A stretch of 64,000 bases of DNA from Thecamonas trahens ATCC 50062 (Eukaryota; Protista; Apusomonadida), in assembly GCF_000142905.1 (NCBI RefSeq), contig NW_013657630.1, positions 85,589-149,588 on the forward strand, in the 5' to 3' direction. A model generated the notes under the pieces. It searched no databases, had not been told where the DNA came from, and saw only the letters and a program-made list of their open reading frames with translations. Both the position numbers and the translations under genes were made by a program. Below, piece by piece: positions 3,107 to 54,410 of the stretch. How positions within the stretch are numbered: the first letter of the stretch is position 1; each line of letters begins with the position of its first letter.

Positions 3107-3336
3107 GGTCCCTGTCCACCCGCCACACATGCCCTGCCTTGCTACCGCCATCACCTATGGGATGGGTACAACACGGGAGGGGCGCACACGTCGGTGGTAT
3201 TGTTCTCGCTCTCCAGCTGGTCTTGGCTAGCTTGTCTTGCCCTCTACAAGGTCAGAGGGAAGAGAGAGAGAGGGAGGGGGGGGCAGGGGAGGGAGGGAGG
3301 GAGGGAGGGAGGGAGGGAAGTGTCCCGTGTCCCTTG

Positions 3337-6146: not shown

Positions 6147-6504
6147 GTCCCTTGTCCCGTCCCGTGTCCCCGTCCCCCGGCCTCCTCCTCGACCGACCCC
6201 AGCCACTCCCTCAGCCTCACGCAGCCTCACGCAGTCTCACCCGGCTCTACCAAGACAGACACTTCTCCCGCACAATACTCTCGACTCACGGCACATCAGA
6301 GATATTGATGACACTCTCTGACTAGAGGGTGCAGATCAGAGGCCAGTCATCCATCAATGATGGCGCGCATATGAAATGGTATGCGTCGTGTTTGTTCGTT
6401 CTCACTCACATGTGGGTGATGGCCTTTGCGGAGTGGACGCAGCAGGCTAGCGAGCGAGGGAGAAGCGAGGGACAGGGGGAGGAGGCAGTTAACACATTCA
6501 TTGC

Positions 6505-6978
6505 TCAACTCTCCCAGTCGATCATGAAGGTGGTGACTCTGGGCTTGTCGGCGATGATGGAGCGGACAATGTTGTTGGGGTCGATCTGGGTGCCGGCGGC
6601 GATGGTCTCGGGATCGGTTCCGTCGGCAAGCGAGTTGGAGACATAGTAGCCAACGCGGACAAACTCCTGGTCCTTGTACGAGCAGGTAAGGAGGCAGACG
6701 GTGACGCCGAGCAGGTCGGCCGCCGGGATGGACGACGGGTCGGGGGCGTCAGCCTGGAACACAAACCGGTTGACGCCCACAGGAATGGGGCCGACCAGAA
6801 TCGAGTCCAGCAGCTGGTCGTACGAGTCGTTCTCCGCAGACCCGACGTACACCAGCTTCCACTCTAGGTCGTCCTGCAGCTGCGCTGTGCACTCAAAGCA
6901 GATCTCAAACTGGAACGGGTTGGTGAACATCGTCGGGTTGTCCAGCACCTCGACATTCGTCAGCGCAACGTACGACAT
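6505..6978 (-). CDS. ASF1: Histone H3-H4 chaperone ASF1
   Basis: [47 protein letters not shown]. Confidence 0.97.
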
Positions 6979-8338
6979 TGTCACTTATCGATCTCTATCT
7001 ACAAACAACCTAGTCCTTGTCCTTGGTCGTCTCCGAAGGCAGTCGGCGCAGTCAGTGGCCGGCTTTGAGCGGAGGAGCGGAGCGGAGGGATGGAGCGGAG
7101 GAAGTGGCTTTGGCCAGTACGCGGCGGAGGTGGTTGGTGGTCGAGGAAGAGAGTCCTGGTCTTGCTTATTCTTGCCGGGCGCTTCTTCCTATAGCTGAGG
7201 ATATGAATATATATATATATATGTCAGGACAAGTGTGAGTGAGACCAGGTGTGATGGTGATGGTAGCAGTGGTGGTGATTGGGGGGGGGGGGGGGGCGTG
7301 GGCTGGCTGGCAGCCTGGCCTGCTGCGCCCACCTCAGGGCGGCCCGAGAGAGCAGACGGCAGTGCATGTCATGGGGGGAATAGCAAATGGAGTATAACTC
7401 TGGTATGGGTACGGAGTGATGGGAGGGGAGGGGGGTGGAGAGGGAGGGGGGGAGGGGGAGGGGGAGGGGAGGGGGGGGGGGGCGGTGTACATGGAGTGGA
7501 GGAGGGAGTGTAGAATCAACGAATGGACGAGTTGCCACTGGCGATGGCCAAAGACGCCAGCAAGGCGACCAGGAAGATGAGGAAAGTGGGAGGAAGCGAG
7601 GGCGAGGTGCGGAGGGGTACACAAGCCATTGGCTACGTGTGAGGTAGAGAGTGTAGCAAGGTGATAGCCAAAGGTACTCCGGGTACCTATACCGTTTCCT
7701 CTCCCCCTGTGCATGTTTCCCCACATGCCCAGCTATCCGCTCATCCCCACCAGGGACATGGTGTACACCATCCCTGTCCCCCTCCCTCGGCCTCTCCCGC
7801 CACCTCTCCTTCCAATGCCACCTACTTGTTCACGTACAAAAAGCTGTGCCAAAAAATGAAAGCCAAGTGGCCGTCGACTGCTGCCAATGACTCGCCAAGG
7901 CGACTCGTTGCCGCACTCGGCGCCGCCGCCCCCCCCCCACTCCGGCCGACTCGTCGTTTCTCCTGTCACTCACCGACCCCGGCCGACACACCGAAAAAGG
8001 TCGTGAATGCCTCGCCCACATCCTGCTACATCTTGTTCATCAGCTGCATGGTGACTGATTGCTGGTCGTAAGTGTGGAGAGGAGAACAGAATGTGTCGCA
8101 CGGCCTGATTTGTGGTGCTCTGGTCCAAGTATTGCGACCGTAGGGGGGTGGCCCTCCTTGGAGGGGGGGGGGGGGGGGGGGGGCGGGAGGGGAAGGGACG
8201 GCTCGGCGGGCGCGACTCGTCGTTTTCCCTGAACAAAAGACACAGCCGACAGCGCACGACAGCGACAGCCACGGCCATGGCCACAGAGGCAGACACCGCA
8301 GACACGGCCAACCACGTGACTCCAACACCAAAAGCATC

Positions 8339-11902: not shown

Positions 11903-14447
11903 ATGTCTGCATCATCGTCCACCGGTCGCTGCCCGAACAAATCGGTATGTACCCTCCCACACTTGAGAACACCAGCTCATATCTCCCCCACCCCCCTCCT
12001 TGTCCCCACTCTGACTGCGGCACTGGCTGCGGCACTGACTGCGACATCCGCAGCATATGTTCTTCCTTGCCAAACCGCCGCCCCTGCCTTTTTCCCGCAA
12101 CCTTTATCTTAACTCACGTTCTTTTTCGCCGAAAATCCCATGGCCTTTTTCGTTGGCGAATGTCTCGTGCACGTCGGATCGCTACACGCGTGCGGACGGT
12201 GGGCTCGTACACCTGCGGACACTCCCGCCGTTGTCTTCCTTCCCTCGGTCGGAACTGTAGAAGGGCGGTACCTGCCCGTTCAAGGGTCATACCAACCTTG
12301 CTGTTGGTGCACCTGGCATCCGCGAATGGTGGCCCAACTCGCTCAACCTCAAGCCGCTGGTGACCAACAGCGGGCTGGCCGACCCCATGGGCGAGGATTT
12401 TGACTACGCGGCCGAGTTTGCCAAGGTCAATCTCGATGAGCTCCGCAACGATGTCATGAAGGTCATGACGACGTCGCAGGACTGGTGGCCGGCTGACTAC
12501 GGCCACTACGGCCCGTTCTTCATCCGCATGTCCTGGCACGCCGCAGGCACCTACCGCGTCTCGGACGGGCGTGGCGGCGCTGGGACCGGCATGCAGCGCT
12601 TTGCGCCGCTCAACTCGTGGCCCGACAACGCAAACCTCGACAAGGCCCGCCGGCTGCTGTGGCCCATCAAGAAGAAGTACGGCCGCAAGATCTCGTGGGC
12701 CGACCTCATCGTGTACGCCGGCAACTTGGCCATCGAGTCGATGGGTCTCGAGACCGTCGGCTTTGGCTTTGGCCGCATCGACAAGTACGAGCCTGAGGAC
12801 ATCTTCTGGGGCGCCGAAACCGAGTGGCTCACTGACTCTGAGCGGTACCCCAAGGACGGCAAGCGCGAGCTTGCTGAAGGCCTTGGTGCTGTCGAGCATG
12901 GCCTCATCTACGTCAACCCGGAGGGCCCCGGCGGCGAGCCGGACCCGATGAAGGCCGCCGCCGACATCCGCGAGTCGTTTGGCCGCATGGCCATGAACGA
13001 CGAAGAGACCGTCGCCCTCATTGCCGGAGGGCACACATTCGGCAAGGCCCACGGCGCTGCCGACCCGTCCAAGTACGTCGGGCCCGAGCCTGAGGGCGAG
13101 TCCATCACCGCCCGCGGCCTCGGCTGGAACTCGTCGTACAAGTCGGGCGCCGGCGCACACGCCATCACCTCGGGCCTCGAGGGTGCATGGACTCCGACGC
13201 CCATCCAGTGGGACAACTCGTACTTTGACATGCTCTTTGGCTACGAGTGGGAGCTGACTAAGAGCCCGGCGGGCGCCTCGCAGTGGACGCCCAAGGGCGG
13301 CTCCGGCTCAGGCCTGGTTCCGGACGCGCACGATGAGGCCAAGTCGCATCCGCCCATCATGTTCACCACTGATCTCGCCCTCCGCATCGACCCGGACTAC
13401 GAGCGCATCTCGCGCCATTTCCACTCCAACCCGGAGGCCTTTGGCAACGCCTTTGCCCGGGCCTGGTTCAAGCTCCTCCACCGCGATATGGGCCCCATCG
13501 CCCGCTACCTCGGCCCGCTTGTGCCCACCACTCCCGAGCTGTGGCAGGATCCGCTGCCGTCGCCGCCGGCTGCCGTCATCGACGCCGATGACATTGCCAC
13601 GCTCAAGGCTGCCATCTCCGCCTCGGACCTCACCCCGGCCCAGCTCGTCCGCACCGCATGGGCCTCCGCCTCGACCTACCGCGACACCGACAAGCGCGGC
13701 GGCGCCAACGGCGCCCGCATCCGCCTCTCGCCACAGAAGGACTGGCCCGTCAACGACCCGCCCGCCCTTGCGGCCGTCCTCGCCGTCTACGACGGCATTC
13801 AGGCCAACTTTAACGCCGGCGCCAAGTCAGTCTCCATGGCCGACCTCATCGTCCTTGGAGGCGTCGTCGGCGTCGAGGCTGCTGCCGCCGCCGCCGGCCA
13901 CGACATCTGCGTCGCCTTTACTCCCGGCCGCACCGACGCCAGCCAGGACCAGACTGATACAGAGGGCTTTGCTGTCCTCGAGCCCACTGCAGACGCATTC
14001 CGCAACTACTACGCGCCCGACAACAAGCGCCCGGCCGAGCAGCTGCTCGTCGACAAGACCATCCTCCTTGGCATCACTAGCCCCGAGATGGCGGTCCTCC
14101 TTGCGGGCCTCCGCGTCATCGGTGCCAACGCTGCTGGCTCGGACCTCGGCGTCCTCACTGACCGGCCGGGTGCCCTCACCACAGACTTCTTCGTCAACAT
14201 CCTGGACGACTCGATCGACTGGGCTCCGGCCGCCGATGGCGTGTACGTCGGCACCGAGCGTGGCTCCGGCGCTACCAAGTGGTCCGCCACCCGCGCCGAC
14301 CTCATCTTCTCCTCCAACTCGCAGCTCCGCGCCCTCGCTGAGGTCTTTGCCGCCGACGATGCCGCTGACCACTTTGTCAACTCCTTTGCCGCCGCATGGG
14401 CCAAGGTCATGGATCTCGACCGCTTTGACCTCCGCTCGCGCATGTAA
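11903..14447 (+). CDS. katG: Catalase-peroxidase; exons 11903-11944 and 12261-14447
   Basis: [52 protein letters not shown], duplicated C-terminal domain; in-phase GTATGT...TGTAG intron. Confidence 0.97.
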
Positions 14448-26458: not shown

Positions 26459-28442
26459 TTAGTTCATGCGCGAGATGAGCTTGGAGATCTGGTTCTCGCG
26501 GTTACCGGCATCACCACCCTCGATGTAGTGGAGGACCTTGGTGCTGAAGCCGCCCTTCGGCGACGAGAGCTTGAACGGCCACAGGAAGTTGTTGACCTGC
26601 TTGAAGTTGGGGCCGACGGTGTAGATCTCGTGAACAATGTCCTCAATGCAAATGACGTTGTACTTGCCGAGCTGCTCCTCGATGAGCTCGTTCGACGAGA
26701 GCTGGATGCGCTGGCCGTTGATCTTACCGTAACCGCGCTTGTAGATAAGCTCGCGGACGTTCTTGAGCGACGGGTAACCGTAGGCGACGTACGGGGTGAC
26801 AAGGCGCAGCATCTGCTCCGAGGCGCGGTTGAGCTTGACAAACACACCGTTGTGGATCTGGCGGAGGCGCAGGAGCTGGAGGACCTTCTTGGTCTTCGGG
26901 TCGACGCCCTGGGTACCGCGGATGCGGATGACAAAGGCGAGCTTGGCCTCGGGCTCGACAAAGTAGTTGCCGGCGGACTTGGCGACACGGCGGAGGGCAA
27001 TGAGCGAGCGCTCGCGCGAGCGGTACTCCTTCACGTACTTCTCGGCACGCTTGAAGGCCTCGGCGTGGCGCTTCTTGTTGGCGACCTTGCGCTCGGCAAC
27101 AGCCTTGGCCTTGGCGGCGCGCTGCTCCTTGGAGATGCGGCGCTGCTTGAGGACAGCCTCCGGAATCGAAGCACTGTGTAGACAAGAGGTCCAGGCGGTA
27201 ACAAGGGCGGGGCAAGAGGGGGAAAGGTGAGTCTCGGCGGAACGCGGTCGTCCTGCAAAGCCCACTCTCCGTGCACAGCCGCGCACTTCCTTCCAACGGT
27301 CTTCGGGTTGCATTCGACGGCTTGAGCCCGAAGCAATAAACATATTTCATCAGAGTTGGCAAAGCGAGAAAAAAGCCCAACTGCGGCATCAGCACCACAC
27401 CCTGCTTTGCTCTCGTATTTCCAACAAGGGCCAAGCAAAGGGCAAGGGCTGATCCAGCAAGTCCGACATTGTCCGCCATCAGCCAACAAAGACATACTCT
27501 TGCAAGATGCACAGAAGCAACGCAAATTAAAGTTATCACATCCCTCTGCTGCCTCGACAAGCTGGCTACCAGCTGCACCAATCCTAGGAAGATCCCAGGC
27601 CAAGGCCAGCCCAGCACGAGCTTGTACGAGCACAACAGCAAAATGGATGGCCACAGATTTCAAGACAAAGACAAGCACTTCCACCTCGACGGCGCCATGT
27701 ACACAGTTGCTCGAACCATCATAGTCCCTTTCTCTCGATCGGCAGCATGACAGTGCCAACCATAGAGAGATAGAGATAGAGATAGAGAGGGCCGGGATCC
27801 ATACACACAGCGCATACCATTCGGTGGAGACTACGTCTTACAGTCTCATCCTCCGACACATCGGGGCGGACCTGGACGAGCCAGGTGCCCCGCAAGATGC
27901 CGACATAGTTGCATGGTCACATCGAGCACGAGACTATGACAAGTAGCAAAGCACGGGTGCTTGCTGTTGTCGCTGTCCGTGCTCGGTCAAAAAGTTCCGG
28001 GACGACAGGGGGGGGGAGGCACACGGGCACAAGGGAGGAGGGGGAGGGGGGGAGCAAAATAATGGGCCATCCCATCCGGTGGCTGGAGGTGGGCCAGACA
28101 TGCCAGGGACAGCCATGGGCCACCTCTACAGCCTACGGAAAGGTTGGTGATCGGAGCGAGCGTGCGTAGCAGCTGCGCCGTAGAGAGCACAGGCGCTTGG
28201 GTGTACGGATGTGCGGGAGCCAGCAGCAGTATATCGAGGACAACGCTGCGGGTCCCCCCTCACACAAAAACCAGCCATCATCGCCACACAGCGGGAGGAC
28301 AAGCAAGGCACAAACGGGGAGGATACAACAACCAAGCCATCCACAACCACCTAGGTATGTTCCGGATGTACTGTGGATGCGCTGCTGTCAACGGCAGCGT
28401 TCTCTCTCTTCATCATGGCGGTACGTACCCCTTGGACGACAT
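26459..28442 (-). CDS. RPL7: 60S ribosomal protein L7 (uL30); exons 28442-28429 and 27173-26459
   Basis: [49 protein letters not shown]; MSSKG|GTACGT...CACAG|T ASIPE in phase. Confidence 0.97.
27475..27545 (-). ncRNA. Candidate intronic box C/D snoRNA (U16/snR87-like)
   Basis: C-like GTGATAA (27539-27533), TAATTTGCG (27529-27521) complementary to conserved SSU rRNA CGCAAAUUA, box D CTGA (27482-27479); inside a ribosomal-protein intron. Confidence 0.35.
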
Positions 28443-28868
28443 GTTGTGTGTGTGTGTGTGAGTGTGAAGTGGTGCCGGTCAATTGGGGCAAAGCGGGAAT
28501 CGTTCGTTGGCGAGATTGAGACTGCCGAAAAAGTGAAAAACATCCAAATCCAGCTCGCGCGAATCACCGCCTTCACAAACCACCCAAACTCGTTGAGCTC
28601 GGCGGTATACACGGCAGCGACCACCGATGAGAGGGAAACAAAGCACTACACGAGGTACATGTCCAGACACATCATATTCTGGTCTTCCTACCACCTGCAA
28701 AAACATCTGATCACTCTCCGTAGGGCCGATCGAGTCCGCCCCCTCCTCCCTCTCTGCTCCCCAGTACGTGACAATGATTCAATCCTGTGATGATCAGGTT
28801 GAAGTCAAAGTGGGTTGGCCAAGTCAGCTTGCGACTCACCGACTCTTCCACCTGTCGACCAGCAAGCC

Positions 28869-32249: not shown

Positions 32250-32410
32250 AACAAGCCCCTGCACACATCTCCTCTCCCACCTCCCACACCAGCCCATCAT
32301 CGCCAGCCACCGCCACGCCGCCCGCCATCCCAATTCCAAACATGATCACGACCAAGATCACGATCACCTCACCCGCACAAGCCCCCCCCCCCCCGCACAC
32401 ACACACAGCC

Positions 32411-39737: not shown

Positions 39738-41540
39738 CTACTGCCCGTGGCTCGCCGCACCAGCTGCCGCAAGCAGTGCTGCAAACTCGCACCTGGGATC
39801 AAAGGTAAGAAAGTCGGGCAGGACATCGACTTGCTTGACGTGATCCTCCAGCTCAGCGTTATGGTCGGCAGTCTCGGGTTTGCCATCGGGCTCACAGGCG
39901 TCACCATGCAGCGCCACAAACTTGGTCAGCTTGTGCGACTCGGCAGTGTGGAAGCGGACGGTAAAAACTTGGTCATGCCCAGCGACGCGCCAGCAGGTCG
40001 TCAGCCCGCGCGAGTGAGGCCACTCGTTGGTTGCGGCGACGAGGAACAGTGCCAGATCGTTGCTGCGGGCCATAATCAGCACCCATTCCCGGGCAACTTC
40101 CAGCAGCTTTTCCGGCCTGACGACGACGTTGTACAGCAGCGCGTCGGTCACCCGGGCTGCGGCTTCCTCTAGCGGACACGCCATGACCTCGGCGATCTCG
40201 GAAATCCGGGCCCGCAGCGGATACTTGGGCATGAGCCGCTCCGTGAGGTCAAAGAGCTGCACGCACTCATGAAAGGTTGCGGCAAGCTCTTCGATGACGT
40301 CAGTGATGGCGGGCTCGGGTCCATCCAACACAGTCCAGCGAGCGCGGATGGAGCGGGCAAGGTAGAGTGCGTGGCGCTTGCTAATTCGCGCCTGGTTGTA
40401 CTCCTCCTCCTGCTCAGGCGGAATAGGCTCGAGCTCGCCCTTGGGTGCGAGCAAGCCGACCTTCTTGCCGATGCGGTCGACTCTCAACGGGCGCGGAACA
40501 GAGTCCCACAACTCCATCATCTCGCTCATCATGGTGTGCTTGGCCAGCGGATCCTTGGCGATCCGAAACTTGGAGTACACCTTGTGCGAGGCGTGCTTGA
40601 CTTCGAGCGACTCGCGGGTGTGGAACTGGAGCTCCCACAGCATGCCGGTGTTTGAGTTCCGGATGACGGTGTTGATGCCCTGGTACTCGTCACCACGCCG
40701 GACAGCGTTGCGCGAGGTCATCGAGTAGACCGTCCTCGTCACGCTCCGCTTGGTGTAGTCGCTGCCCGAGAGAATGACAGAAACCTCGTCCGAGTACTTT
40801 TGCCCGCCCACGTCGCTGTCAAAGCTCGACTGGACATTAGCCAGCATCGATGGGTCGAATGCGGCGTAGACATCCTTGCGGGCGTCGGTAATCCAGTAGT
40901 TCTTCTCCTCGACAAACTCGAAGCGACCTTGGGACGGATTGGCCTCGGGGTCATAAAAGTCAGCCTGCATAAGCGCCTGACGCACCATCTCCACTCCACT
41001 CGAGTACATCTCGGTCTCAAACTGGATGGTGTACCGCAGTGCGTCCTTGATCGAGGCGCAGAGCGCGTCCTCATCGTCATCGGCCAAGGCTGCAGCCTTG
41101 TCCCGCAACTTGCGCTCCATCGAGTGACGGGTCTTGAACCTGTGCTCCAGCCCGACCATGACTCCGCCATTGGCTTCAGCCGCCGCCTGGACGTAGCCGG
41201 TAATCTGTTTCTCGCCACGGACAGCCTGGTTGAACAGCCGAGCCGCGGCGTTGCGTGCCCGGGTGGCGAGCGAGGCCGACAGACCCTGTCCGCGATTGTC
41301 CGGCAGCAGTGTCAGCGAAAGCATACCTCCACTCCCTGTCCACAGCGCGGTGACCAGCTCAGGCTGTGACCTTATGGTGATGGTTTCACCCTCATTGTCG
41401 ACGTAGGTCGGGACAAGCCCATTGTGGTACTCATTGTCCACCACATGCATGAGCGCCGTAAAGTAGTCTGCCTCACCCGAGAGCAAGTGGACCCGGTTGC
41501 GACCGCCGACAGAAAGCTGCACCCTTATCCCATCCGCCAT
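39738..41540 (-). CDS. PB1 domain + RelA/SpoT-like nucleotide pyrophosphokinase (Apk2/phage-toxin-like) domain + degenerate second copy
   Basis: PB1 OPCA YVDNEGETITIRSQPEL; synthetase motifs GLEHRFKTRHSMERK, IKDALRYT, KNYW, YQGIN, WELQFHT.ES..VK..SHKVYSKFR; second copy VTDALLYNV..NEW..RGLT..VRFHTAES. Confidence 0.8.
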   Translation of the reverse strand: MADGIRVQLSVGGRNRVHLLSGEADYFTALMHVVDNEYHNGLVPTYVDNEGETITIRSQPELVTALWTGSGGMLSLTLLPDNRGQGLSASLATRARNAAARLFNQAVRGEKQITGYVQAAAEANGGVMVGLEHRFKTRHSMERKLRDKAAALADDDEDALCASIKDALRYTIQFETEMYSSGVEMVRQALMQADFYDPEANPSQGRFEFVEEKNYWITDARKDVYAAFDPSMLANVQSSFDSDVGGQKYSDEVSVILSGSDYTKRSVTRTVYSMTSRNAVRRGDEYQGINTVIRNSNTGMLWELQFHTRESLEVKHASHKVYSKFRIAKDPLAKHTMMSEMMELWDSVPRPLRVDRIGKKVGLLAPKGELEPIPPEQEEEYNQARISKRHALYLARSIRARWTVLDGPEPAITDVIEELAATFHECVQLFDLTERLMPKYPLRARISEIAEVMACPLEEAAARVTDALLYNVVVRPEKLLEVAREWVLIMARSNDLALFLVAATNEWPHSRGLTTCWRVAGHDQVFTVRFHTAESHKLTKFVALHGDACEPDGKPETADHNAELEDHVKQVDVLPDFLTFDPRCEFAALLAAAGAASHGQ

Positions 41541-41795
41541 ACTGCCTTTTCTGGGAGGAGAGAGCTAGTGCTGGTGTCCTGGTCCTACTCCTGCTCCTTG
41601 ACCTTGTGTGGGGGGGGGGGGTGGTCGCAGAGTTTGTGGCTTTCGCTGAACACGATCACGATCACGATCACACTCGCGATCACGATCACGATCACGATCA
41701 CGATCACCCGCACCTCCCCCCCCCCCACCACACACACACCCCACCCCCTACACATACCCACACTCACACCTTCCCACCTCACCCATCCCTAAGCT

Positions 41796-44393
41796 ATGAA
41801 ACGGTGGCGCGAAGTGGTGCATGCCCACTCGGGCGGGTGGAAGTCCACAGCCAGTGCACAGTGGAAGGCCATTCTGGCCACAGTTGCTGCTCCACCTACA
41901 GGTCTCCTCCCTTCCACACAAAGCCGCTCGTCCAAGCCCTCCACCGCATGGCCTACTTTCTCGGACTCTGCCTGCTGCCTATCAAACTCATCTTCAAACT
42001 CATCGTTGTCGTCGTCAGCATCGGTTGATCACTCTCTTAGTGATCATGGTCTTGACCATGATGATGTTGATGTCGCTCCGCTCCTCGCTCGCGCGCCGTC
42101 GCTGGAGATGCTTGCGCCGGACTTGGCGGCTATGGCCCGCACGCTCAAGTCGCAGAGTCATCGGAGCAATGGCTTGGACGATTCTGAGTCTGATTCGGGT
42201 GAATCCGACTCGGACTCGTCCTCGCTTGATCCGGGCTTGGCCCTCTCGCCCACAAAGATCAATAGCTCGCCGGACGACGATGCTGGAGAGGTGTGGACGA
42301 CAGTGCTTGCTGCGGTCAAAGCAAAGCGGCTTGCTGAGAGCAACTACAACGACGATGATGACGATGACGCTTCGTCCGACGATGGCATGGACATGGAAGA
42401 TGTGGAGGCCTTTCCGCCTGAGCTCCGCCGAGTCTCGTCGCAGCTGCTGCTGCCGCAAGAGTCGGCCGGCGAGCTGCGCGGTGCTGCCCGCTGGCGCGCA
42501 GTCGTGGCAGCCAACAAGGACACGCTCGCCGAGTTGGCCACCGCCACCTGGACTCGTATCGCTGGCACGGTGTCCGGCTCGGATGTCTCCGAGACCGAGA
42601 CTGAAGCCGAGGCCGAGTTCGGCACTCCCGAGCTCGCAGCCGACCCGCGCGCCGACAGCCTCTCCTGGCCTGTGGTGCTCTCAGAGCTCGAGTCCTCTCT
42701 CGAGCCACAAAGTGGGCCGTGGCTCACCTCGATGCTCTCGTCCGAATCACTTCACGATATGCGGTGGGGCGAGATTCAGAACTACGCCGACAAGCATCAC
42801 CCCGAGCTGGTCGAGGTCGTTGACTCGACGCTGCCGAGCTCCGACTGGGACCGTACCGAGCTTCCGGATGAGTTGCCTTCCATCAGCGACTCGACGCTCC
42901 GTGCTCGGCGCACCAGACACTCGCATGGCCGAAATCTGAGTCCGGCTGCCGTCCTTGTTCTCCGCGCCGCGCACTCGCGCGACTCGATGGGCGTGGCATC
43001 CAACAGCTCGCTTGCCAGCATGAACGCGCGCATTGCATCGTACGACGGCCTCTTTGCTGACTTGGTCAGGGACAACGGGAAACGCTGGCTGCCGGACGGG
43101 CTCACCCCATCCCCGTCCCTACAAGACCTGGTCGCTGATCCGGAGCTGGCCGCCACCGCCGCCTCACAGCCCGACTGGCGCGATGTTGCCAAGTCGCAGT
43201 GGTTAGTTGCCACCGCGCACGCTGACCTCTTATCGGCCGACTCGGACTCGGTCGACTTTACTTCGGACGACGACCATGCTGGCTCACACTCGTCGTCGCA
43301 ACACTCGGCCTGCGGCAGCAGACCGGGCGCCAGCGCCGACCTCAACGGGTCGACATCGCTGGAGGAGGCCATTGCACTCGCCTCAGCTGCAGCGACAGGC
43401 GCGGAACCGCCAGCGCCGCCTCCGATGATTATCACGGGTGTCCACGAGCTCCCGCTGGATACACTCCTCGAGTCCATTTCTGCAGCTGCGGCTCCAACGC
43501 CGTCGCCGCGCTCGCTGCCTCGTTCGCATCTCGAGCACTCGAACTTGGTCCAGACACTTGCACAGCTGTCGAGCCTTGTCGCCGACAAGGTTGCCGACGC
43601 CAAAGCCGTGCTCGCCATCTCGCCCGACCCGGCGCTCGGCAACGCCTATCGCTCGCTCTGCGCCGAAGCAGACTCGCTGGCTGAGACTCTCGATGCCGTG
43701 ACTAGTGGTGCTGAGCGGACCGGTGCCACGCACGCTGGCCCGCACGTGGCCACTGAGACCATCGACGCGCTGCGGGCGTACGCACACCGTGCCGAAGCCC
43801 AGGTCAAGGTACTTGGAAATCGATTCGAGGCTACCGCAGCCGCAACTCGCTCCGCCATTGCCCGCGTTCGTTCACAAGCAAACCGACTCGACGACCTGGC
43901 TGTGCGGCGGGCAGCGCTCGACGCCCAGTTGGCAGAGCTTGAGGCGCTGCACGTGTCAGCGCTCGAGACAGGAGCACATGCGCGTACGACTAGTGATGCT
44001 GCCGCTGCCGCTGGCGACTCGGTCGCTGCCTCCTTGATCAACAAGATCGTGACAGTGCAGCAGCGGCGGCTGGCGCCGACACCGCCGTCCGCGGAGCCTC
44101 TAGACATGCGTCCGTTGGGTGCGCGACTCGACGCGCTCTCGGCTACCCTCGCGGCGTCGTTGGAGCACAACCGCGAGCGGCTAGCATCGGCGCGGTCTCA
44201 CGCTCTCTCACAGTCGCCGTCACGGCTGCAGTTCTCGGGCCGGGCAGCAGCGCGGGCGCAGCAGCAGCGGACTAGCACGCCGCCGCCACGTCGCGGCCGC
44301 CGAGGCCAGACAAGAAGAGCCGGGCGCGGGCGCGGCCCGCTGGAGGCACGGCTGCTGGCGTCACCGTCGTCGGTCACCAACCCGTGGCGGTAG
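41796..44393 (+). CDS. Uncharacterised protein: acidic disordered N-half with repeated WxxV/I motifs, helical/coiled-coil C-half
   Basis: 865-aa ORF filling the space between neighbouring genes; no confident family. Confidence 0.7.
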   Translation: MKRWREVVHAHSGGWKSTASAQWKAILATVAAPPTGLLPSTQSRSSKPSTAWPTFSDSACCLSNSSSNSSLSSSASVDHSLSDHGLDHDDVDVAPLLARAPSLEMLAPDLAAMARTLKSQSHRSNGLDDSESDSGESDSDSSSLDPGLALSPTKINSSPDDDAGEVWTTVLAAVKAKRLAESNYNDDDDDDASSDDGMDMEDVEAFPPELRRVSSQLLLPQESAGELRGAARWRAVVAANKDTLAELATATWTRIAGTVSGSDVSETETEAEAEFGTPELAADPRADSLSWPVVLSELESSLEPQSGPWLTSMLSSESLHDMRWGEIQNYADKHHPELVEVVDSTLPSSDWDRTELPDELPSISDSTLRARRTRHSHGRNLSPAAVLVLRAAHSRDSMGVASNSSLASMNARIASYDGLFADLVRDNGKRWLPDGLTPSPSLQDLVADPELAATAASQPDWRDVAKSQWLVATAHADLLSADSDSVDFTSDDDHAGSHSSSQHSACGSRPGASADLNGSTSLEEAIALASAAATGAEPPAPPPMIITGVHELPLDTLLESISAAAAPTPSPRSLPRSHLEHSNLVQTLAQLSSLVADKVADAKAVLAISPDPALGNAYRSLCAEADSLAETLDAVTSGAERTGATHAGPHVATETIDALRAYAHRAEAQVKVLGNRFEATAAATRSAIARVRSQANRLDDLAVRRAALDAQLAELEALHVSALETGAHARTTSDAAAAAGDSVAASLINKIVTVQQRRLAPTPPSAEPLDMRPLGARLDALSATLAASLEHNRERLASARSHALSQSPSRLQFSGRAAARAQQQRTSTPPPRRGRRGQTRRAGRGRGPLEARLLASPSSVTNPWR

Positions 44394-48097: not shown

Positions 48098-50902
48098 ATG
48101 CCTGTGGTAGTGTGCGAGGACGGCAAGCGAAGGCGGCTGGTGCACAAGAAGCGATTGGTAAAGGGGAAGAAAAAGACGGTGACCAAGAAGAAGCGCCTGG
48201 TCCGTATTGTGGACGACGGGGCCTTGGGCGGCGCCGACTCGCTGGCTCAAAGGGAGGATCTGGCAGGTCGGACGAATGGGGCGATGGTGAGAAAGGTCAA
48301 ATCGCAGGAGATGGCCACCTCTTCCATGACTCGCGCCATGTCACATGACGAAAACGCTCTCGCATCGCAGCCGCTCGGCAACTCGCTCCAGCTGGTCCAC
48401 TCGCAGCAGACCACATCGATGCCGACAACAGGCGCATCGAGTGCGACGTCGTTTTCGGCGGTGGCTATGGCGGCAGCCGCGTTTCATCCTGGCAGTGCAG
48501 GCCGGAAGGGTGATGTGCTTGGCCAGGAACACGAGGAAGATCTGACTCCCGAGGAGCGGATCCAGCGCCGGCTGGATGAACGGCAGCGGATGGCTATGAC
48601 TAGACACTTGGATGAGCTGGAGCGCCGAAAGGCTCGCGAGGCGATGCCGACCCAAGGCGCGCCGCGCAAGTGGATCATGGTCCATCTAGTCACCCCCGAT
48701 GGCTCGGTCCAGCGGCGGGTCCAGCTCCACGAGCTGGTCAGCGGCGAGTTTCTTCTCAAGGGTTTTGCCGAGAAGCTCAAGCTCATTGAGTGGGAGCATT
48801 TTCAGCTGGCCAAGGTCATCGGCGGCGGCAACGCCTTTGCCCGCTACCTCGACGCCGTCGAAGCGCGGCTGGTCATGCCCGACGCTGTCGACGAGGCATC
48901 TACCAGCCCGACGCCGCGAGCCCGCAAGTTTGCACCTGACGCAAGCAGCCAGGGTGGAGACCATGCGACTGCCATCCCGCAGCTCAAGCTGCAGTGGATT
49001 CACGACGAGGTCAAGGTGATGGAACAGGGAGTGAAGGAGGGCGACGTGCTGGTGCTGATGGTCAAGCTCTACACCGCCGACGTCGCCGAGTGCACCTGCG
49101 TCCGGGCTGTCCAACTCTACTACGTCGACATTGCCATCAAGATCTTCTCGCACGTGTGGAAGGTGACGGCCGAACAGGCGTACAAGCTTGCGTCGTTCAT
49201 GGTCCACATCCGGCTCGGCTCCTACTCTAAGGCTCGCGAGAAGGACCGCAGCGCGCTCGCCAATTCGCTCGGCCACATCCTCCCAGCCAGCTTTATCCCG
49301 CGGTCGAAAAAGGCGCGCAAAGCCGTCACCCGCACCATCTTTCGCTACTACAAAGAGTACGCCGGCATGCGCCGGACGCTCGCCATGATCAACTTTTGCG
49401 AGTACGCCACGCTCGCTGCGGGCTATGGCTCCATCGTCTTTCACGTTCACCAGTCCTCGTCGGCGGCCGCCGCTGTCGGCTCCGCCGCGCCGTCATCAGC
49501 CGACTCGGGCGATGAGCTCAGCGACGGTGACGGCGCGATGGGCGCCCTTGTTGACGCCCGCCGCCGCGCTTCCGCGCCAGTCCGATCGCTCGCCATCCTC
49601 CCGCAAGGCCTAGCAGTGTACGACGCCGCGGCCTGGGACGCCGCATCGGCAGACACTCTCCCGCTTCCGCTCGAGGTCCACACTTTTGAGTCCGACATCG
49701 ACGCCTTTACCTACGATGCCGGCACCCTCGACGTCGTCCTCTCCTCCGGCCGCATCCTCTCGTTCGAGGCCGCAAAGGTGGGCGCTGACAACGACTCACT
49801 TGATGGGCATGATTTCGCCGAGCTCTCTGTCGAGCCAATGGCGCACGCCCGCGAAGTCCTGGGAGGTTACCAACACTTTTTCTTCATCGGCAAGGTCTCG
49901 ACGCCCGGCGCGTCGCACCGCCGGCGCACCGCCTTTTCGGTCGCCGTCAGCCTGCCTTCTGGCGAGCTCCGCGAGTCGATTGCTGTGACCCAGACAACAA
50001 CCGGAGACAAAGTCTTTCGTGAGTATGCTGACCGGCTGCAGATCACCCACCGCGCCGGCTTTGGCCTCTGTGAGTCGACGCTCGACAACGACCGCTGGCT
50101 CGACATGAACCGGCCGCTGGTCGACCAGTTTGTGACCAAGCGGACCAAGCTGGTCTTCAAGATGCGGTACTTTTTCATCACCGATGCGTCCATCGCCGCC
50201 GAGGACGACGATCACGCCGTCATGGCCATCTTCCACCAAGTACGCCAGCTCATTCTCGACGGCTACTACCTGGTCACCGAGGAGGAGGCCATCGAGTTTG
50301 CCGCATTCTCGTGCTTTGTGGAGAACGGCGCCTATGACCGCTCCGCCCACGCCGTGAGCATGATCGTCGCCGACGGCCTCGGCACTTACATTCCGACCTG
50401 GCTGCGCCCAAAGCGCAAGGACCGCGAGTGGGCCACGATGGTCTTCTCCCGCTTCCGCAAGATGGGTGACGTCGGCTCGGACGTCGAAGCCCAAAAAGCG
50501 TACATCATCCGCGCCATGGACCTCACCACCTTTGGCATCACCTACTTCAAGGTTCTCTCCGACGACGACCGCGACCTCTTGCTCGGCGTCGCGCCCGCAG
50601 GCATCGTCGTCTTCACCGCAACTCACTTTAAGAAGCTGCACGTCTTCTCCTACCGCGACCTCCGCATCGATGTCACGCCGGCCGCCGTCACCCTCACGGT
50701 GCTTGTCAAGGACGGCGAGGTCGACCCGCTCCTTGGCGCCGCCCCATCGCACTGGGAGGACCACATCATGTACACCGAGACGCCGCTCGAGGCCAAGTCG
50801 ATCCGCGAAATGGCCTCGACCTACCACCGCATTGCCTACGTGCGGGCACAAGTTCGCGCCCGCGAACGCGCCCGCGCCCTCGCCGTCAGCGGTGCCTTCT
50901 AG
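48098..50902 (+). CDS. Tandem double FERM-domain protein
   Basis: Two F1-F2-F3 sets, e.g. RWLDMNRPLVDQ..LVFKMRYF, FHQVRQLILDGYYLVTEEEAIEFAA, TFGITYFKV..LLGVAPAGI. Confidence 0.85.
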   Translation: MPVVVCEDGKRRRLVHKKRLVKGKKKTVTKKKRLVRIVDDGALGGADSLAQREDLAGRTNGAMVRKVKSQEMATSSMTRAMSHDENALASQPLGNSLQLVHSQQTTSMPTTGASSATSFSAVAMAAAAFHPGSAGRKGDVLGQEHEEDLTPEERIQRRLDERQRMAMTRHLDELERRKAREAMPTQGAPRKWIMVHLVTPDGSVQRRVQLHELVSGEFLLKGFAEKLKLIEWEHFQLAKVIGGGNAFARYLDAVEARLVMPDAVDEASTSPTPRARKFAPDASSQGGDHATAIPQLKLQWIHDEVKVMEQGVKEGDVLVLMVKLYTADVAECTCVRAVQLYYVDIAIKIFSHVWKVTAEQAYKLASFMVHIRLGSYSKAREKDRSALANSLGHILPASFIPRSKKARKAVTRTIFRYYKEYAGMRRTLAMINFCEYATLAAGYGSIVFHVHQSSSAAAAVGSAAPSSADSGDELSDGDGAMGALVDARRRASAPVRSLAILPQGLAVYDAAAWDAASADTLPLPLEVHTFESDIDAFTYDAGTLDVVLSSGRILSFEAAKVGADNDSLDGHDFAELSVEPMAHAREVLGGYQHFFFIGKVSTPGASHRRRTAFSVAVSLPSGELRESIAVTQTTTGDKVFREYADRLQITHRAGFGLCESTLDNDRWLDMNRPLVDQFVTKRTKLVFKMRYFFITDASIAAEDDDHAVMAIFHQVRQLILDGYYLVTEEEAIEFAAFSCFVENGAYDRSAHAVSMIVADGLGTYIPTWLRPKRKDREWATMVFSRFRKMGDVGSDVEAQKAYIIRAMDLTTFGITYFKVLSDDDRDLLLGVAPAGIVVFTATHFKKLHVFSYRDLRIDVTPAAVTLTVLVKDGEVDPLLGAAPSHWEDHIMYTETPLEAKSIREMASTYHRIAYVRAQVRARERARALAVSGAF

Positions 50903-50918: not shown

Positions 50919-53900
50919 TCAGCTGCTGGACCAGTCGTCGTCTGTCGTCTCGGTTGTGTCGGTGTGAAAGTCCGAGGTAAAGTGGCCCGAGGTGATGGTC
51001 GTGTCGAGGTCGGCGAGCGCAGTGCGGATGTGCGCTGGGAGCGGCGAAGACGGCGTCATCGGCGAGAGCGTCGGGTCGGGCCGCGGAACCCGGAGCGAGC
51101 GCGGGGTCATCATGCCCTCGGTGCTCCGGCTCGAGCTCTCGTCGTCGTCGGAGTGGCTCTCGTCTGGCCGCGGACGCCGCCGCCGCCGCATCCGACGCCG
51201 CGGCGGGATGGCGAGCGGCGCCGTCGGCGACCTGGCGACATCGCTCTCGGCCGCCGCCGCTGCCGCCAGCTCATCCAGCTCACCCGACTCGCTGCACGAC
51301 TCGTCGCTCTCGAGAACAAGCGGCCGCGAAAGCGCAACAAGTGCGGTGATGTTGTCAGTCGAGTTGGCGCGGTAAGCCTTGTCACGGAGCTCAAGCGCAA
51401 GCTCGAGTGCCGACTTGAGCGCGGCTGACGGCGCGCGGACAACTGCCGCCGCCGAAACGTCGTCGATGACGTCCCACACTCCGTCCGAGCCCATGATGAG
51501 AGCCTCGACGTGCAGCGAGGGAACCGAGACGACGTGCGGCTCGGTGCAAATAGTGGATACGTTGAGCGAGTCGCCGAGCGACCGCGCGAGGTTGATTGAG
51601 TCGTTGACGTAGCCGTCGGGTGTGACAAAGCCGCCGGCGGCCCTGATACGATCGTACTCGTCGTACGGCAGCTTGCCGACGTTGTGGTCGATGCTGAGTC
51701 GGACAACCCGCGGGTCGCGGACCATTCGTGAAGCGTGGGTCGGGCGGTGGAACTTGTCCAGCGTCCCGTACGACTCCTTGAACGACGACGCGGCGTAGTC
51801 GGGCGTGTCGTCAGAGAGGACAGCAACGGCGCGCGAGTCGCCGACGTTGCCAAGAATGATGCGGTCCGAGGCCCAGAGAGCAACTACCGCGGCAGCGCCG
51901 TCGCGCATGTCCGAAAGCGCCTCGACAGCGTCGCCAAACGCAAGGCGCATTGCCTCTTCCTCAGACACCGCAGCCTCGCGAAGGCGCGCCGCAAGGATGC
52001 GATGAAAGTTTGAGCCGAGCCAGACCGCCGTCAGCCGGCCACCGTGGCCATCAAACACGCCGAGGTACGAGTACACGCTCCCGCGCTCGGGAACCTCGAG
52101 CAGCTCGATGTGGCACACATCTTCCATGTACGGTCGATCGCCGACCATGTCAGCGATGCCCACGTCAGAGCAAACACCGCGGGCCGACGGTGAGCCGTCT
52201 TCAGGTGGAGGAAGCACAACAGCGTGCGAGTGTGAGAGGAACGCCGCCCGCCATGCCGGGAGCTCACCGACCGACATTCGCCGCGAGAGCTCCAGCCGCG
52301 GGCATCCGTCAACGCAGAGTGAGACGGTGGAGCCACGGAGCATGGTCGCGACTCGTGGGTGGATGACTGAGAGGTGCGGACAGAATCGGGCTGCAACATG
52401 TTGCACGCGCTTGATCTCTGCCAGCGCGTCCGGCAGAATCCTCAGCGGGTTCCCGGACAAGTTGAGCTCGCGGAGCATGTGGAGGCGGGTGAGTGAGCCG
52501 TCAATCTTGGTGATGGCATTGTTGGAGAGCTCAAGCACTTCGAGGGAAAGGCAGTCGTAGAGCGGCCGCGGAATGGCATCAAGCGAATTAGACGAAGCCC
52601 GGAAGACCTTGAGCTCCGGCAGGCCGCCGGCGGCCCAGGCTGGCAGCGTCGTGAGCGCATTGCCCGAGATAGCGAGCGTAATAAGGTTTGGCAGCTCCGG
52701 CAGGTCGTGAGCGCTGGCCGGTGCGTCCGGGAGCGCCGTCAGACGATTGTAGTCGAGTGAAAGCCGCTCGAGCGTGTCCGAGCAGAAGAGCTCGATCGGG
52801 AGGCCGGCGTCGTTGAGGTTGTTGAACGAAGCGATGACTGCGGTGAGCGACGGGAGCGAGCCGAGGCAGGCCGGCAAGGCGGTGAGTGCGTTGTGTGAGA
52901 CGTTGAGGTACTCGAGCGTGTGCAGGTGGTGGAGCTGTGACGGGAGGGTGGTGAGCGCGTTACGGGTGAGGTCAAGAACGCGGAGCGCGGCCCAGTGCGA
53001 GAGGCGCGGCAGGCCTGAGAGCTCCAGCCGCTCGAGGCCGCAGCGTGCCATTGAAAGCTGGGTAAACGGCAGGGCCTTGTTGGCGCGGCGCCGACGGCGG
53101 CGCGGGCGGCGGTTGGGGTGGCTGGAGCGAGCAACCTTGCCAGCCGCGTTGAGGTTGGGCATCGAAGTCTTCCGCGAGAGGCCGGTGTATGTGTACGCCG
53201 ACTTGGTGGTGGTGTGTGAGGTGGCGGCAATGGGTGGCGAGTCTGGCTCGTCGGTAAAGCCGCCGGTGCGGGCCGAGATTGACGACGCGCGCTGACGGCC
53301 GGAGGAGGCCGTGCCTGGGTTGCGCGACCCGTGTTTGGATGAGCCTGCAGGCGCAAAGTCGACTTCGTTGGGCGATGCCGCGGTTGGAGTCAAGCCCTGC
53401 AGCGCCGATGACGTGGTCGAGAGCGAGAGGTTGCGGGCCGAGGCCGAGTGGGCAAACGGCGAGCTCCCGGACGAGGCGTGTGGGCCGTTTGTGGGAGGCG
53501 AGTCCGACGGGCGGTGCTTGCGCGGCGTCCTCGACCGACCGTCGGTGGGATCCTCTTTGGCAAGCGAAGCTACGCCACCCTTGAGCGGGTTGCCGGCAAG
53601 TGTGACGACGGTGAGCAGCGGCGCGGCACCCAGCGTGCGCGGCGGCTGATCCAGAAAGTTGAGGTCGAGCCGGAGCTCGAGGAGGGTGGCAAACACACCG
53701 AGGTCAACGTCAAACTCGGTGAGGCGGTTCCGCGAGAGAACCAGGACAGCGAGCGAGCCGCCGACAGCCTCCAGGTCATCGGGGACGGCAACAATCTCGT
53801 TGGCTTCAAGGCGGAGCGTGTGCAGCGAGCGCATGGTCCCAATCCATCCACCGGGCAGTACCTCGAGGTGGTTGTGCCCGAGGTTGAGGACCTGGAGCTC

Positions 53901-54410
53901 CGGCAGCGGCTGCGCCAGGTCGGGCAAAGCGCGAATGCTGTTGTGCGAGAGGTCAAGGATTTTGAGGGTGTGCGACCACGAGGTCGAGAGCGAGCTTGAC
54001 GAGCGGGTCTGCAGAAAGCCGACCTGAGTCAGCCTGTTCGAGCCCATGAGCAGCTCGACGAGCGCCGGAAAGACAATCTCGAGCGTGCCAACCCCGACAG
54101 CGGCCAGCTTGTTGCGGGTTAGGTTAAGGTGAGTGAGCGCGGTATGGGCGGCAAAGTCGGCGGGCGGTGGGAGGACCATGGCTACATCGTTGTGCTGTAG
54201 ATCCAGCGAGACGAGCGACGAGGCGGCCGCCACAAGCTCCCACGGAAAGACGCCCAGCCTGTTCCGCGCCACGTTTGCCGACGTCAGGCTTGCGGTCAGA
54301 TTAGACTTGCGCACCGCCTTGCGCGGCAGCGTTTCCAGATTGAGCGCCGCGAGATCCAGATGCAGCGTTTCGGCCGCCCGAGACAGCGCGTCCGAGTGTG
54401 AGTTTCCCAT
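50919..54410 (-). CDS. LRR + PP2C protein phosphatase (PHLPP/Cyr1-like architecture), possible N-myristoylation
   Basis: Two LRR blocks; GDRPYMED, GVFDGHGG, NVGDSRAV, LARSLGD, MGSDGVWDV, STDNIT; MGNSHS start. Confidence 0.9.
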   Translation of the reverse strand: MGNSHSDALSRAAETLHLDLAALNLETLPRKAVRKSNLTASLTSANVARNRLGVFPWELVAAASSLVSLDLQHNDVAMVLPPPADFAAHTALTHLNLTRNKLAAVGVGTLEIVFPALVELLMGSNRLTQVGFLQTRSSSSLSTSWSHTLKILDLSHNSIRALPDLAQPLPELQVLNLGHNHLEVLPGGWIGTMRSLHTLRLEANEIVAVPDDLEAVGGSLAVLVLSRNRLTEFDVDLGVFATLLELRLDLNFLDQPPRTLGAAPLLTVVTLAGNPLKGGVASLAKEDPTDGRSRTPRKHRPSDSPPTNGPHASSGSSPFAHSASARNLSLSTTSSALQGLTPTAASPNEVDFAPAGSSKHGSRNPGTASSGRQRASSISARTGGFTDEPDSPPIAATSHTTTKSAYTYTGLSRKTSMPNLNAAGKVARSSHPNRRPRRRRRRANKALPFTQLSMARCGLERLELSGLPRLSHWAALRVLDLTRNALTTLPSQLHHLHTLEYLNVSHNALTALPACLGSLPSLTAVIASFNNLNDAGLPIELFCSDTLERLSLDYNRLTALPDAPASAHDLPELPNLITLAISGNALTTLPAWAAGGLPELKVFRASSNSLDAIPRPLYDCLSLEVLELSNNAITKIDGSLTRLHMLRELNLSGNPLRILPDALAEIKRVQHVAARFCPHLSVIHPRVATMLRGSTVSLCVDGCPRLELSRRMSVGELPAWRAAFLSHSHAVVLPPPEDGSPSARGVCSDVGIADMVGDRPYMEDVCHIELLEVPERGSVYSYLGVFDGHGGRLTAVWLGSNFHRILAARLREAAVSEEEAMRLAFGDAVEALSDMRDGAAAVVALWASDRIILGNVGDSRAVAVLSDDTPDYAASSFKESYGTLDKFHRPTHASRMVRDPRVVRLSIDHNVGKLPYDEYDRIRAAGGFVTPDGYVNDSINLARSLGDSLNVSTICTEPHVVSVPSLHVEALIMGSDGVWDVIDDVSAAAVVRAPSAALKSALELALELRDKAYRANSTDNITALVALSRPLVLESDESCSESGELDELAAAAAAESDVARSPTAPLAIPPRRRMRRRRRPRPDESHSDDDESSSRSTEGMMTPRSLRVPRPDPTLSPMTPSSPLPAHIRTALADLDTTITSGHFTSDFHTDTTETTDDDWSSS

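Follow-up and report, generated by a model that had tools for sequence, protein, structure and literature searches.

A Thecamonas trahens protein that joins a PB1 domain, an alarmone synthetase-like domain and a conserved pseudo-synthetase domain

How could a eukaryote without plastids keep in its cytosol an alarmone synthetase of a type that is lethal in bacterial cytoplasm? The question is raised by an open reading frame (ORF) on the minus strand at positions 39738-41540 of a 64,000-nucleotide stretch of the Thecamonas trahens genome, referred to here as the window. The ORF encodes 600 amino acids, its product is 99% identical to the T. trahens database protein AMSG_09491 (public model P0002, annotated as uncharacterized), and by our analysis it combines a PB1 domain, an active-type alarmone synthetase domain and a pseudo-synthetase domain. 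The genes around it include those for coatomer gamma, a syntaxin, a patatin-like lipase, an Obg-like GTPase and TFIIA gamma, which places it in the eukaryotic housekeeping context that an initial annotation of the stretch had claimed. A conserved, probably expressed synthetase in a culture-collection strain makes the deliberate production of (p)ppApp/(p)ppGpp by a plastid-less eukaryote directly testable.

The reading frame and its motif series were as the initial annotation had described them, with HRFKTRHSMERK at aa 133-144, KDALRYT at 165-171, KNYW at 213-216, YQGIN at 286-290, WELQFHT at 302-308 and the acidic motif of PB1 at 46-62. Its description of the gene as intronless is unsettled, as the first 8 residues of the public model differ from those of the ORF and imply an intron at about 41517-41848. 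None of the RNA contigs that we found lay over that junction, and a profile of three relatives did not separate the two N-termini (17.7 versus 16.7 bits). We favor the unspliced start, an ATG at 41540, because it faces a 255-bp divergent intergenic stretch (41541-41795) with a cluster of GATC-containing hexamer repeats at 41652-41702. This spacer is likely a shared promoter region. Another such cluster occurs at 32344-32362, and the two lie just upstream of or at gene starts, as a possible promoter element. Across the spacer, an 865-aa ORF without a Pfam match runs divergently from the synthetase gene (41796-44393, plus strand), and exon 1 of the synthetase in the public model would overlap its 5′ end.

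The initial annotation had looked to RNA sequencing as a check, and this was answered in part by an exact 308-nt contig in RNA run X1, at a depth of 3.5, within the synthetase-coding part of the gene (40620-40927). The same run yielded a 745-nt contig that matches the ribosomal protein L7 gene exactly, with the first 20 bases of the contig placed 1255 nt from the rest across a GT-AG intron; run X1 therefore contains spliced mRNA of this organism. The L7 gene itself (27174-28449, minus strand) has a short exon 1 at about 28429-28442, ahead of its 1255-nt intron. The synthetase gene is probably transcribed, as judged from one low-depth contig of a single run that was itself found with this gene. 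Two further contigs, from runs that may be the assembly's own source, cover the upstream spacer, PB1 and half of the synthetase (X3, 40832-41626) and the synthetase with the start of domain 2 (X2, 40204-40930).

The motif series had been assigned to RelA/SpoT enzymes of the Apk/EAS toxin type, and this assignment held in sequence, fold and catalytic residues. Scanned whole, the protein matched no Pfam family, and its domains emerged after splitting; the best whole-protein score in the ESM Atlas was 0.82, which we took as a lead only. A phmmer search of the PDB with the protein found 8VX3, the exported synthetase SaEAS (SaSAS) of Streptomyces albidoflavus, at E=9.3e-18, and RNase H matches in the same search, at E-values of 0.4 or above, were dismissed as chance. 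Among 1.84 billion representative sequences, 2331 matched at E-values of 0.001 or less, and a resemblance of this strength is not one that chance would give. A structure predicted from 74 aligned sequences reached a mean pLDDT of 76.2 and a whole-chain pTM of 0.70, while single-sequence prediction was unusable (pLDDT 37.6). In this model the synthetase domain, domain 1 (aa 87-359; 40464-41282, minus strand), superposed on 8vx3_B with Z 21.9 and an rmsd of 2.3 over 197 aligned residues at 30% identity; RelP (Z 13.4), Tas1 (6ox6, Z 12.5) and CapRel (Z 11.0) ranked behind it, and Foldseek gave E=2.1e-9 for the domain.

The predicted active site comprises K136, D166, R169, Y286, N290, E303 and Q305. 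At none of 20 key columns does any of the four full-length family members depart from the consensus, which was drawn from 134 single-domain matches, a set that includes four eukaryote-like proteins in which no second domain was detected. The active-site residues of SaEAS include D121, R124, N169, E182, Q184 and K154 in the available text of PMC12691689. Five of these six correspond directly in the phmmer alignment, to D166, R169, N290, E303 and Q305 respectively, and the sixth, K154, falls by register on E211 and not on K213, so that it is not clearly kept. On sequence and model, domain 1 is an Apk/EAS-type RelA/SpoT synthetase fold with its catalytic residues intact, and it shares the RYT and GxN signatures with the Apk group, whose members act on nucleotides. 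A family-specific insertion of 66 residues (aa 217-282; 40695-40892, minus strand), modeled at low confidence and 14-44% identical between members, lies between the KNYW strand and YQGIN, where it splits the active domain and precedes the acceptor-binding Tyr286. The product cannot be called from the motifs, because among characterized relatives some make ppApp alone, some ppGpp alone and some both; motif swaps did not switch specificity.

The N-terminal PB1 domain with an OPCA motif, also proposed initially, found support as well. It spans aa 1-82 (41295-41540, minus strand), with D48, E50, E52 and E61 as the acidic OPCA residues. Pfam PB1 scored aa 1-90 at 14.5 bits (E=0.035), below its cut-off of 23.6, and the orthologue P0003 at 28.7 bits, above it. 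PB1 clusters made up 25 of 30 ESM Atlas matches to aa 1-84, with a top score of 0.92 and 194 of 256 features in common. The region is weak in the predicted structure (pLDDT 36-63), and the acidic motif is weak in the relative P0008. Strand beta-1 carries a lysine in P0003, P0008 and P0010; aa 1-82 of the T. trahens protein contain no lysine. A strand 1 lysine together with OPCA is the rule for PB1 self-oligomerization in the accessible part of PMC8200828, and this pair, which marks the self-oligomerizing type I/II domains, is incomplete here. Since the acidic motif is kept and the lysine is missing, the domain would, by that rule, bind a lysine-type partner without polymerizing with itself.

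The earlier reading of the locus omitted the 66-residue insertion and a degenerate second synthetase domain at about aa 384-581 (39798-40391, minus strand), here called domain 2. Direct comparison of the two domains gave only weak signals (BLASTP E=0.39; hhalign probability 82%), and the repeat was established through profiles and structure, not pairwise alignment. A profile of 130 single-domain sequences, from which the PB1 family was excluded, scored the C-terminal halves of the four members at 27.6-54.6 bits, versus 2.2-4.9 bits for the best of 250 shuffles of each; the T. trahens domain itself gave 27.6 bits versus a shuffle maximum of 3.1. The curated XopAD profile matched the C-terminal half alone at E=1.6e-8. 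In the model, domain 2 repeats the secondary-structure order of domain 1, at a pLDDT near 90 over aa 371-540, and superposes on RelP (6ewz_B) with Z 11.3 and an rmsd of 4.5 over 176 aligned residues. The whole-chain pTM, with both synthetase domains near pLDDT 90, suggests that the two are held in a fixed arrangement in the predicted fold; submitted as separate chains without alignments, they gave no answer either way in complex prediction (score 0.00).

Domain 2 appears dead in a consistent way. The catalytic Glu is lost in 4 of 4 members, its column reading T, S, Q and T (T in the T. trahens protein), and the equivalents of K136 and N290 are gone, with the Asp (D466) and the H-T pair (H531-T532) retained. 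Invariant across the four are R435, K439, Y440, R443, D466, W507, G512, H531 and T532, and identity between members is 30-47%, compared with 34-55% and 55-73% for the halves of the active domain. Tandem proteins of bacterial or phage type (n=8: P0007, P0009, P0011-P0015 and L019) keep both Asp and Glu in 18 of 18 copies, and decay of the second copy is thus a trait of the PB1 family. There are counterexamples to a clean split, namely an XopAD-like bacterial protein with a decayed third copy (P0130) and P0023, which keeps both copies. No other feature says more than the conserved pseudo-synthetase about how the cytosol could harbor an enzyme that is potentially toxic.

Among the best 150 of the 2331 matches, the layout recurs at full length in three relatives, P0003 (45% identity), P0008 (33%) and P0010 (33%), the last a EukProt entry. 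A fifth member, P0156, is partial, its called product, which alone was seen, being interrupted by low-complexity stretches that resemble read-through introns. Five members, four of them full-length, among those best 150 matches point to a patchy distribution. The initial annotation had named chimeric assembly as a danger, and the layout kept by three full-length relatives at 33-45% identity argues that the locus is no such chimera.

Beyond the PB1 family, an intact domain followed by a decayed second copy occurs behind ankyrin repeats (P0095, P0167), an RRM (P0066) and other N-termini (P0004, P0026, P0067, P0178). Judged by domain content, these tandem proteins look eukaryotic. The wider set that we noted (these seven with P0154, P0083 and P0065) has an intact synthetase, mostly then a decayed copy, and RRM, ankyrin or glycine-start N-termini. 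A FastTree phylogeny of 171 domain rows grouped the eukaryote-like proteins loosely with the PB1 family and signal-bearing bacterial enzymes (0.92). In IQ-TREE, run on 70 of 189 rows (30 of them drawn at random from 120 others) with 15 insertion columns dropped and 170 kept, the four full-length members formed one clade with support of 100/99 and the backbone stayed open. A single eukaryote-like clade of 12 rows (the PB1 family plus 8 eukaryote-like proteins, P0023 left out) was not rejected by the AU test (p-AU 0.303).

A gene acquired from bacteria or phage would be the simplest account, and the trees do not single out a donor. A myxobacterial lipoprotein donor had a FastTree support of 0.86, and GTDB matches, picked with a pattern derived from the family, were Myxococcota in 4 of 6 cases and Acidobacteriota in 2 of 6; IQ-TREE did not recover a link to the lipoprotein clade, and the AU test did not reject one (p-AU 0.496). 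The bacterial sequences concerned (L010-L015, L002, L003, L005, L009, P0025, P0027, P0085, P0093, P0113 and P0143) form a clade in IQ-TREE (100/97) of single-domain proteins with signal peptides or lipoboxes from Myxococcota and Acidobacteriota, a clade that the accessible part of the EAS paper does not name. Metagenome and viral scans returned bacterial- or phage-type loci only (9 and 1, respectively). Word-based homologue searches proved lossy, one of them having missed P0008 and P0010 although both were in the query. One locus, L016, encodes at 2751-7205 (plus strand) a phage-type protein of 1485 aa in which one synthetase domain is of Apk type and another, RelA-like, is weaker. The initial proposal of a domesticated bacterial or phage toxin domain stands as to a toxin-type fold in a genuine eukaryotic gene and not as to a phage Apk2 donor, on which the trees give no resolution.

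A long-RSH architecture, hydrolase domain, signal peptide and adjacent hydrolase gene had been reported as absent, and we likewise found none of them by Pfam, by hydropathy or in 35 other window ORFs. PB1 and the two synthetase folds account for all 600 residues, leaving no HD hydrolase or TGS/ACT part. No signal peptide or membrane helix was evident by hydropathy (best 19-residue window 1.37), the best 10-residue N-terminal value being 1.0 compared with 2.07-2.41 in three signal-bearing relatives, and the Pfam scan of the protein gave no secretion-system domain. The 35 other ORFs (7 plus 28 scanned, with spliced genes present as ORF pieces) contained no HD/Mesh1 hydrolase, second PB1 domain or known antitoxin gene, and within that scope no hydrolase or receptor for the product was seen; an adjacent antitoxin or hydrolase is what defines toxSAS systems, and the divergent 865-aa neighbor is the ORF without a Pfam match. 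Elsewhere in the window we noted an 866-aa ORF (3479-6079, plus strand) that encodes a BED zinc finger, lies where the GC content is slightly lower and may derive from a transposon, a 934-aa protein with two FERM central stretches (48098-50902, plus strand) and an LRR-PP2C fusion of 1163 aa (50919-54410, minus strand). A 686-aa ORF with two peroxidase stretches (12387-14447, plus strand) we take to resemble a bacterial-type catalase-peroxidase.

It seems about an even call that the protein is a regulated (p)ppApp/(p)ppGpp synthetase of the cytosol, with the pseudo-domain as its likely restraint and PB1 as the likely means of recruitment. The three closest characterized groups, SaEAS, Apk1/Tas1 and Apk2, act on nucleotides, and by analogy domain 1 would use ATP to pyrophosphorylate nucleotides of adenosine, guanosine or both, the product (p)ppApp or (p)ppGpp then serving as an intracellular signal. 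The relatives that have been characterized turn over very fast, and in the cytoplasm they are toxic if they are neither exported nor paired with an immunity protein. Given an intact site, no evident export signal and no recognizable antitoxin or hydrolase neighbor in the window, such toxicity means that another form of control is needed. For a brake or allosteric unit one would look first to the dead copy, conserved within the same chain, and for the input to PB1. The pseudo-domain may pack on the active domain and restrain or allosterically tune it, and would so take the place of the export or immunity protein on which the bacterial relatives depend. The acidic PB1 face would bind a lysine-type PB1 partner, which could localize the enzyme or switch it on. 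That the architecture is stable in distant members would be expected of a housekeeping-type role more than of a polymorphic toxin.

A broader proposal, which we offer tentatively and rather doubt, is that the synthetase and pseudo-synthetase core marks an undescribed eukaryotic signaling family, acquired once and fitted with varied inputs (PB1, ankyrin, RRM or glycine-start), with alarmone synthesis gated by the dead copy much as kinases are by pseudokinases. Were this true, protists would have a (p)ppApp/(p)ppGpp messenger system that does not depend on chloroplasts.

Other readings share much of this evidence. With the same chemistry the protein could be a conditional suicide or defense effector, silent until PB1 triggers it on infection, that drains ATP and GTP and arrests or kills the cell. 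We think this unlikely. The nearest relatives are indeed toxins (WXG100, MuF and XopAD/SKWP proteins), with SaEAS turning over about 100,000 times per minute and toxic in cytoplasm, and CapRel gives a precedent for a fused inhibitor; however, the gene adjoins housekeeping genes, and its architecture is fixed rather than polymorphic in 4 of 4 full-length members, even if their patchy membership is what an effector might show. PADLOC, whose library is prokaryotic and whose silence is therefore weak evidence, returned 0 matches for 6 of 6 queries at E≤0.1. The acceptor might also be something other than a nucleotide, for example the 3′ end of an RNA such as the CCA of tRNA, which would make the enzyme a translation brake. 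This we consider improbable: the RYT and GxN signatures point to nucleotides, and the tRNA-modifying CapRel lies far below SaEAS in structural similarity (Z 11.0 versus 21.9), although several toxSAS of the same fold pyrophosphorylate tRNA, the eukaryote-like tandem relatives P0066 and P0154 carry an RRM, and the insertion next to Tyr286 could redirect specificity.

The enzyme may instead be active with domain 2 as a structural leftover of duplication that stabilizes the fold, control coming from PB1 partners or expression alone. Many of the invariant residues of domain 2 are hydrophobic core positions, and, since bacterial effectors often have synthetase copies in tandem, the duplication may have been inherited; but the basic residues and Asp of the first two motifs are also invariant in 4 of 4 members, which would exceed the needs of a pure scaffold, and we regard this reading, too, as having a small chance. 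That the gene is an artifact or dead, whether as contamination from bacteria, as a chimera of the assembly or as a relic without catalysis, is very improbable and largely refuted. Codon usage in the synthetase gene is the least typical of 8 genes (RSCU r 0.84 versus 0.88-0.97), but its GC3s of 0.76 falls inside the 0.70-0.84 of the 7 neighbors. No contig joins the gene to a flanking one; contigs X3 and X2 do run from the spacer through the start of domain 2, in runs that may be the assembly's source. The layout is common to three full-length relatives from other data sets, EukProt among them, and the 20 intact key columns speak against a relic. A restrained cytosolic synthetase is our preferred reading; if true, a cell that lacks chloroplasts would be able to make these signals under control.

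Our literature search, which covered freely readable papers and part of their supplements, found no paper on AMSG_09491 or on a fusion of a synthetase with PB1 or a pseudo-synthetase, and 0 papers for 'ppGpp' with 'Thecamonas'. AMSG_09491 is listed under its UniProt entry among the Tas1 jackhmmer matches of PMC10083569 (Dataset S1; E=2e-15), beside rows from Pelagomonas and Reticulomyxa; the accessible main text of that paper calls the Tas1 matches bacterial and has one unrelated mention of 'eukaryot'. The protein is absent from the 6 supplements of PMC12691689, the available main text of which has no 'eukaryot', and the text of PMC7229694 that could be consulted has zero mentions of eukaryot, fung, archae or protist. 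Eukaryotes other than plants and algae are known chiefly for the Mesh1 hydrolase, with scattered synthetases of unproven activity, according to the accessible part of PMC3153485. Already in print, then, are the sequence, unremarked, and divergent eukaryotic synthetases (2011); in the sources as available to us we did not find a description of the architecture of PB1, synthetase and pseudo-synthetase.

By sequence and structure the best match is SaEAS, but SaEAS consists of one domain, which is secreted and bears a Sec signal, whereas the T. trahens protein has PB1, an insertion and a pseudo-domain and lacks the evident Sec signal or secretion domain by which the EAS family is defined. It shares its fold and the RYT and GxN signatures with Apk1/Tas1 and the MuF-linked Apk2, and tblastn matched MuF head proteins of Mannheimia and Pasteurella phages; it differs in having no PAAR or MuF domain and no iapK/aph1-like neighbors, in its nuclear housekeeping context and in FH where Apk2 has YH. 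Apk2 is defined by an N-terminal MuF domain, a prophage head region and downstream iapK and aph1, as in L017 and L018, in contrast to the PB1 domain and eukaryotic neighbors here. The protein would work like an Apk/EAS pyrophosphokinase, yet it is outside the Apk2 and EAS families as defined and, with no known antitoxin or HD gene among the 35 ORFs scanned, probably outside the toxin-antitoxin families. The XopAD/RipS SKWP type III effectors, in which tandem domains were already known, have two RelA-like domains at similar spacing and are intended for the interior of eukaryotic cells. In the one Ralstonia SKWP protein examined, both copies retain the catalytic Asp and Glu, unlike the T. trahens protein, which also lacks the SKWP repeats and the RdRP-like unit that precede the synthetase domains in that family and scored 109.5 bits against a cut-off of 2000, with the match confined to the synthetase part of the profile.

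Eukaryotic synthetase-only proteins were described earlier as divRel, the divergent RSH proteins of fungi, dictyostelids and diatoms ascribed to horizontal transfer (Atkinson 2011, PMC3153485); compared by description, they are synthetase-only like this protein, and the accessible text does not mention PB1 or a pseudo-domain. For a pseudo-synthetase next to an intact synthetase we found no precedent in the literature searched. CapRel, as far as PMC11782079 was available, has an in-cis regulatory module on an RSH enzyme, as proposed here, but there the module is a pseudo-zinc finger and tRNA is modified. Hydrolase-only SpoT uses a decayed pseudo-SYNTH domain as a regulator, but beside a hydrolase (PMC9974481, in the part available). 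The pseudo-domain of the T. trahens protein suggests how an enzyme lethal in bacterial cytoplasm was tamed, by a form of control that would differ from the Tis1-type and pseudo-zinc-finger control known from toxSAS.
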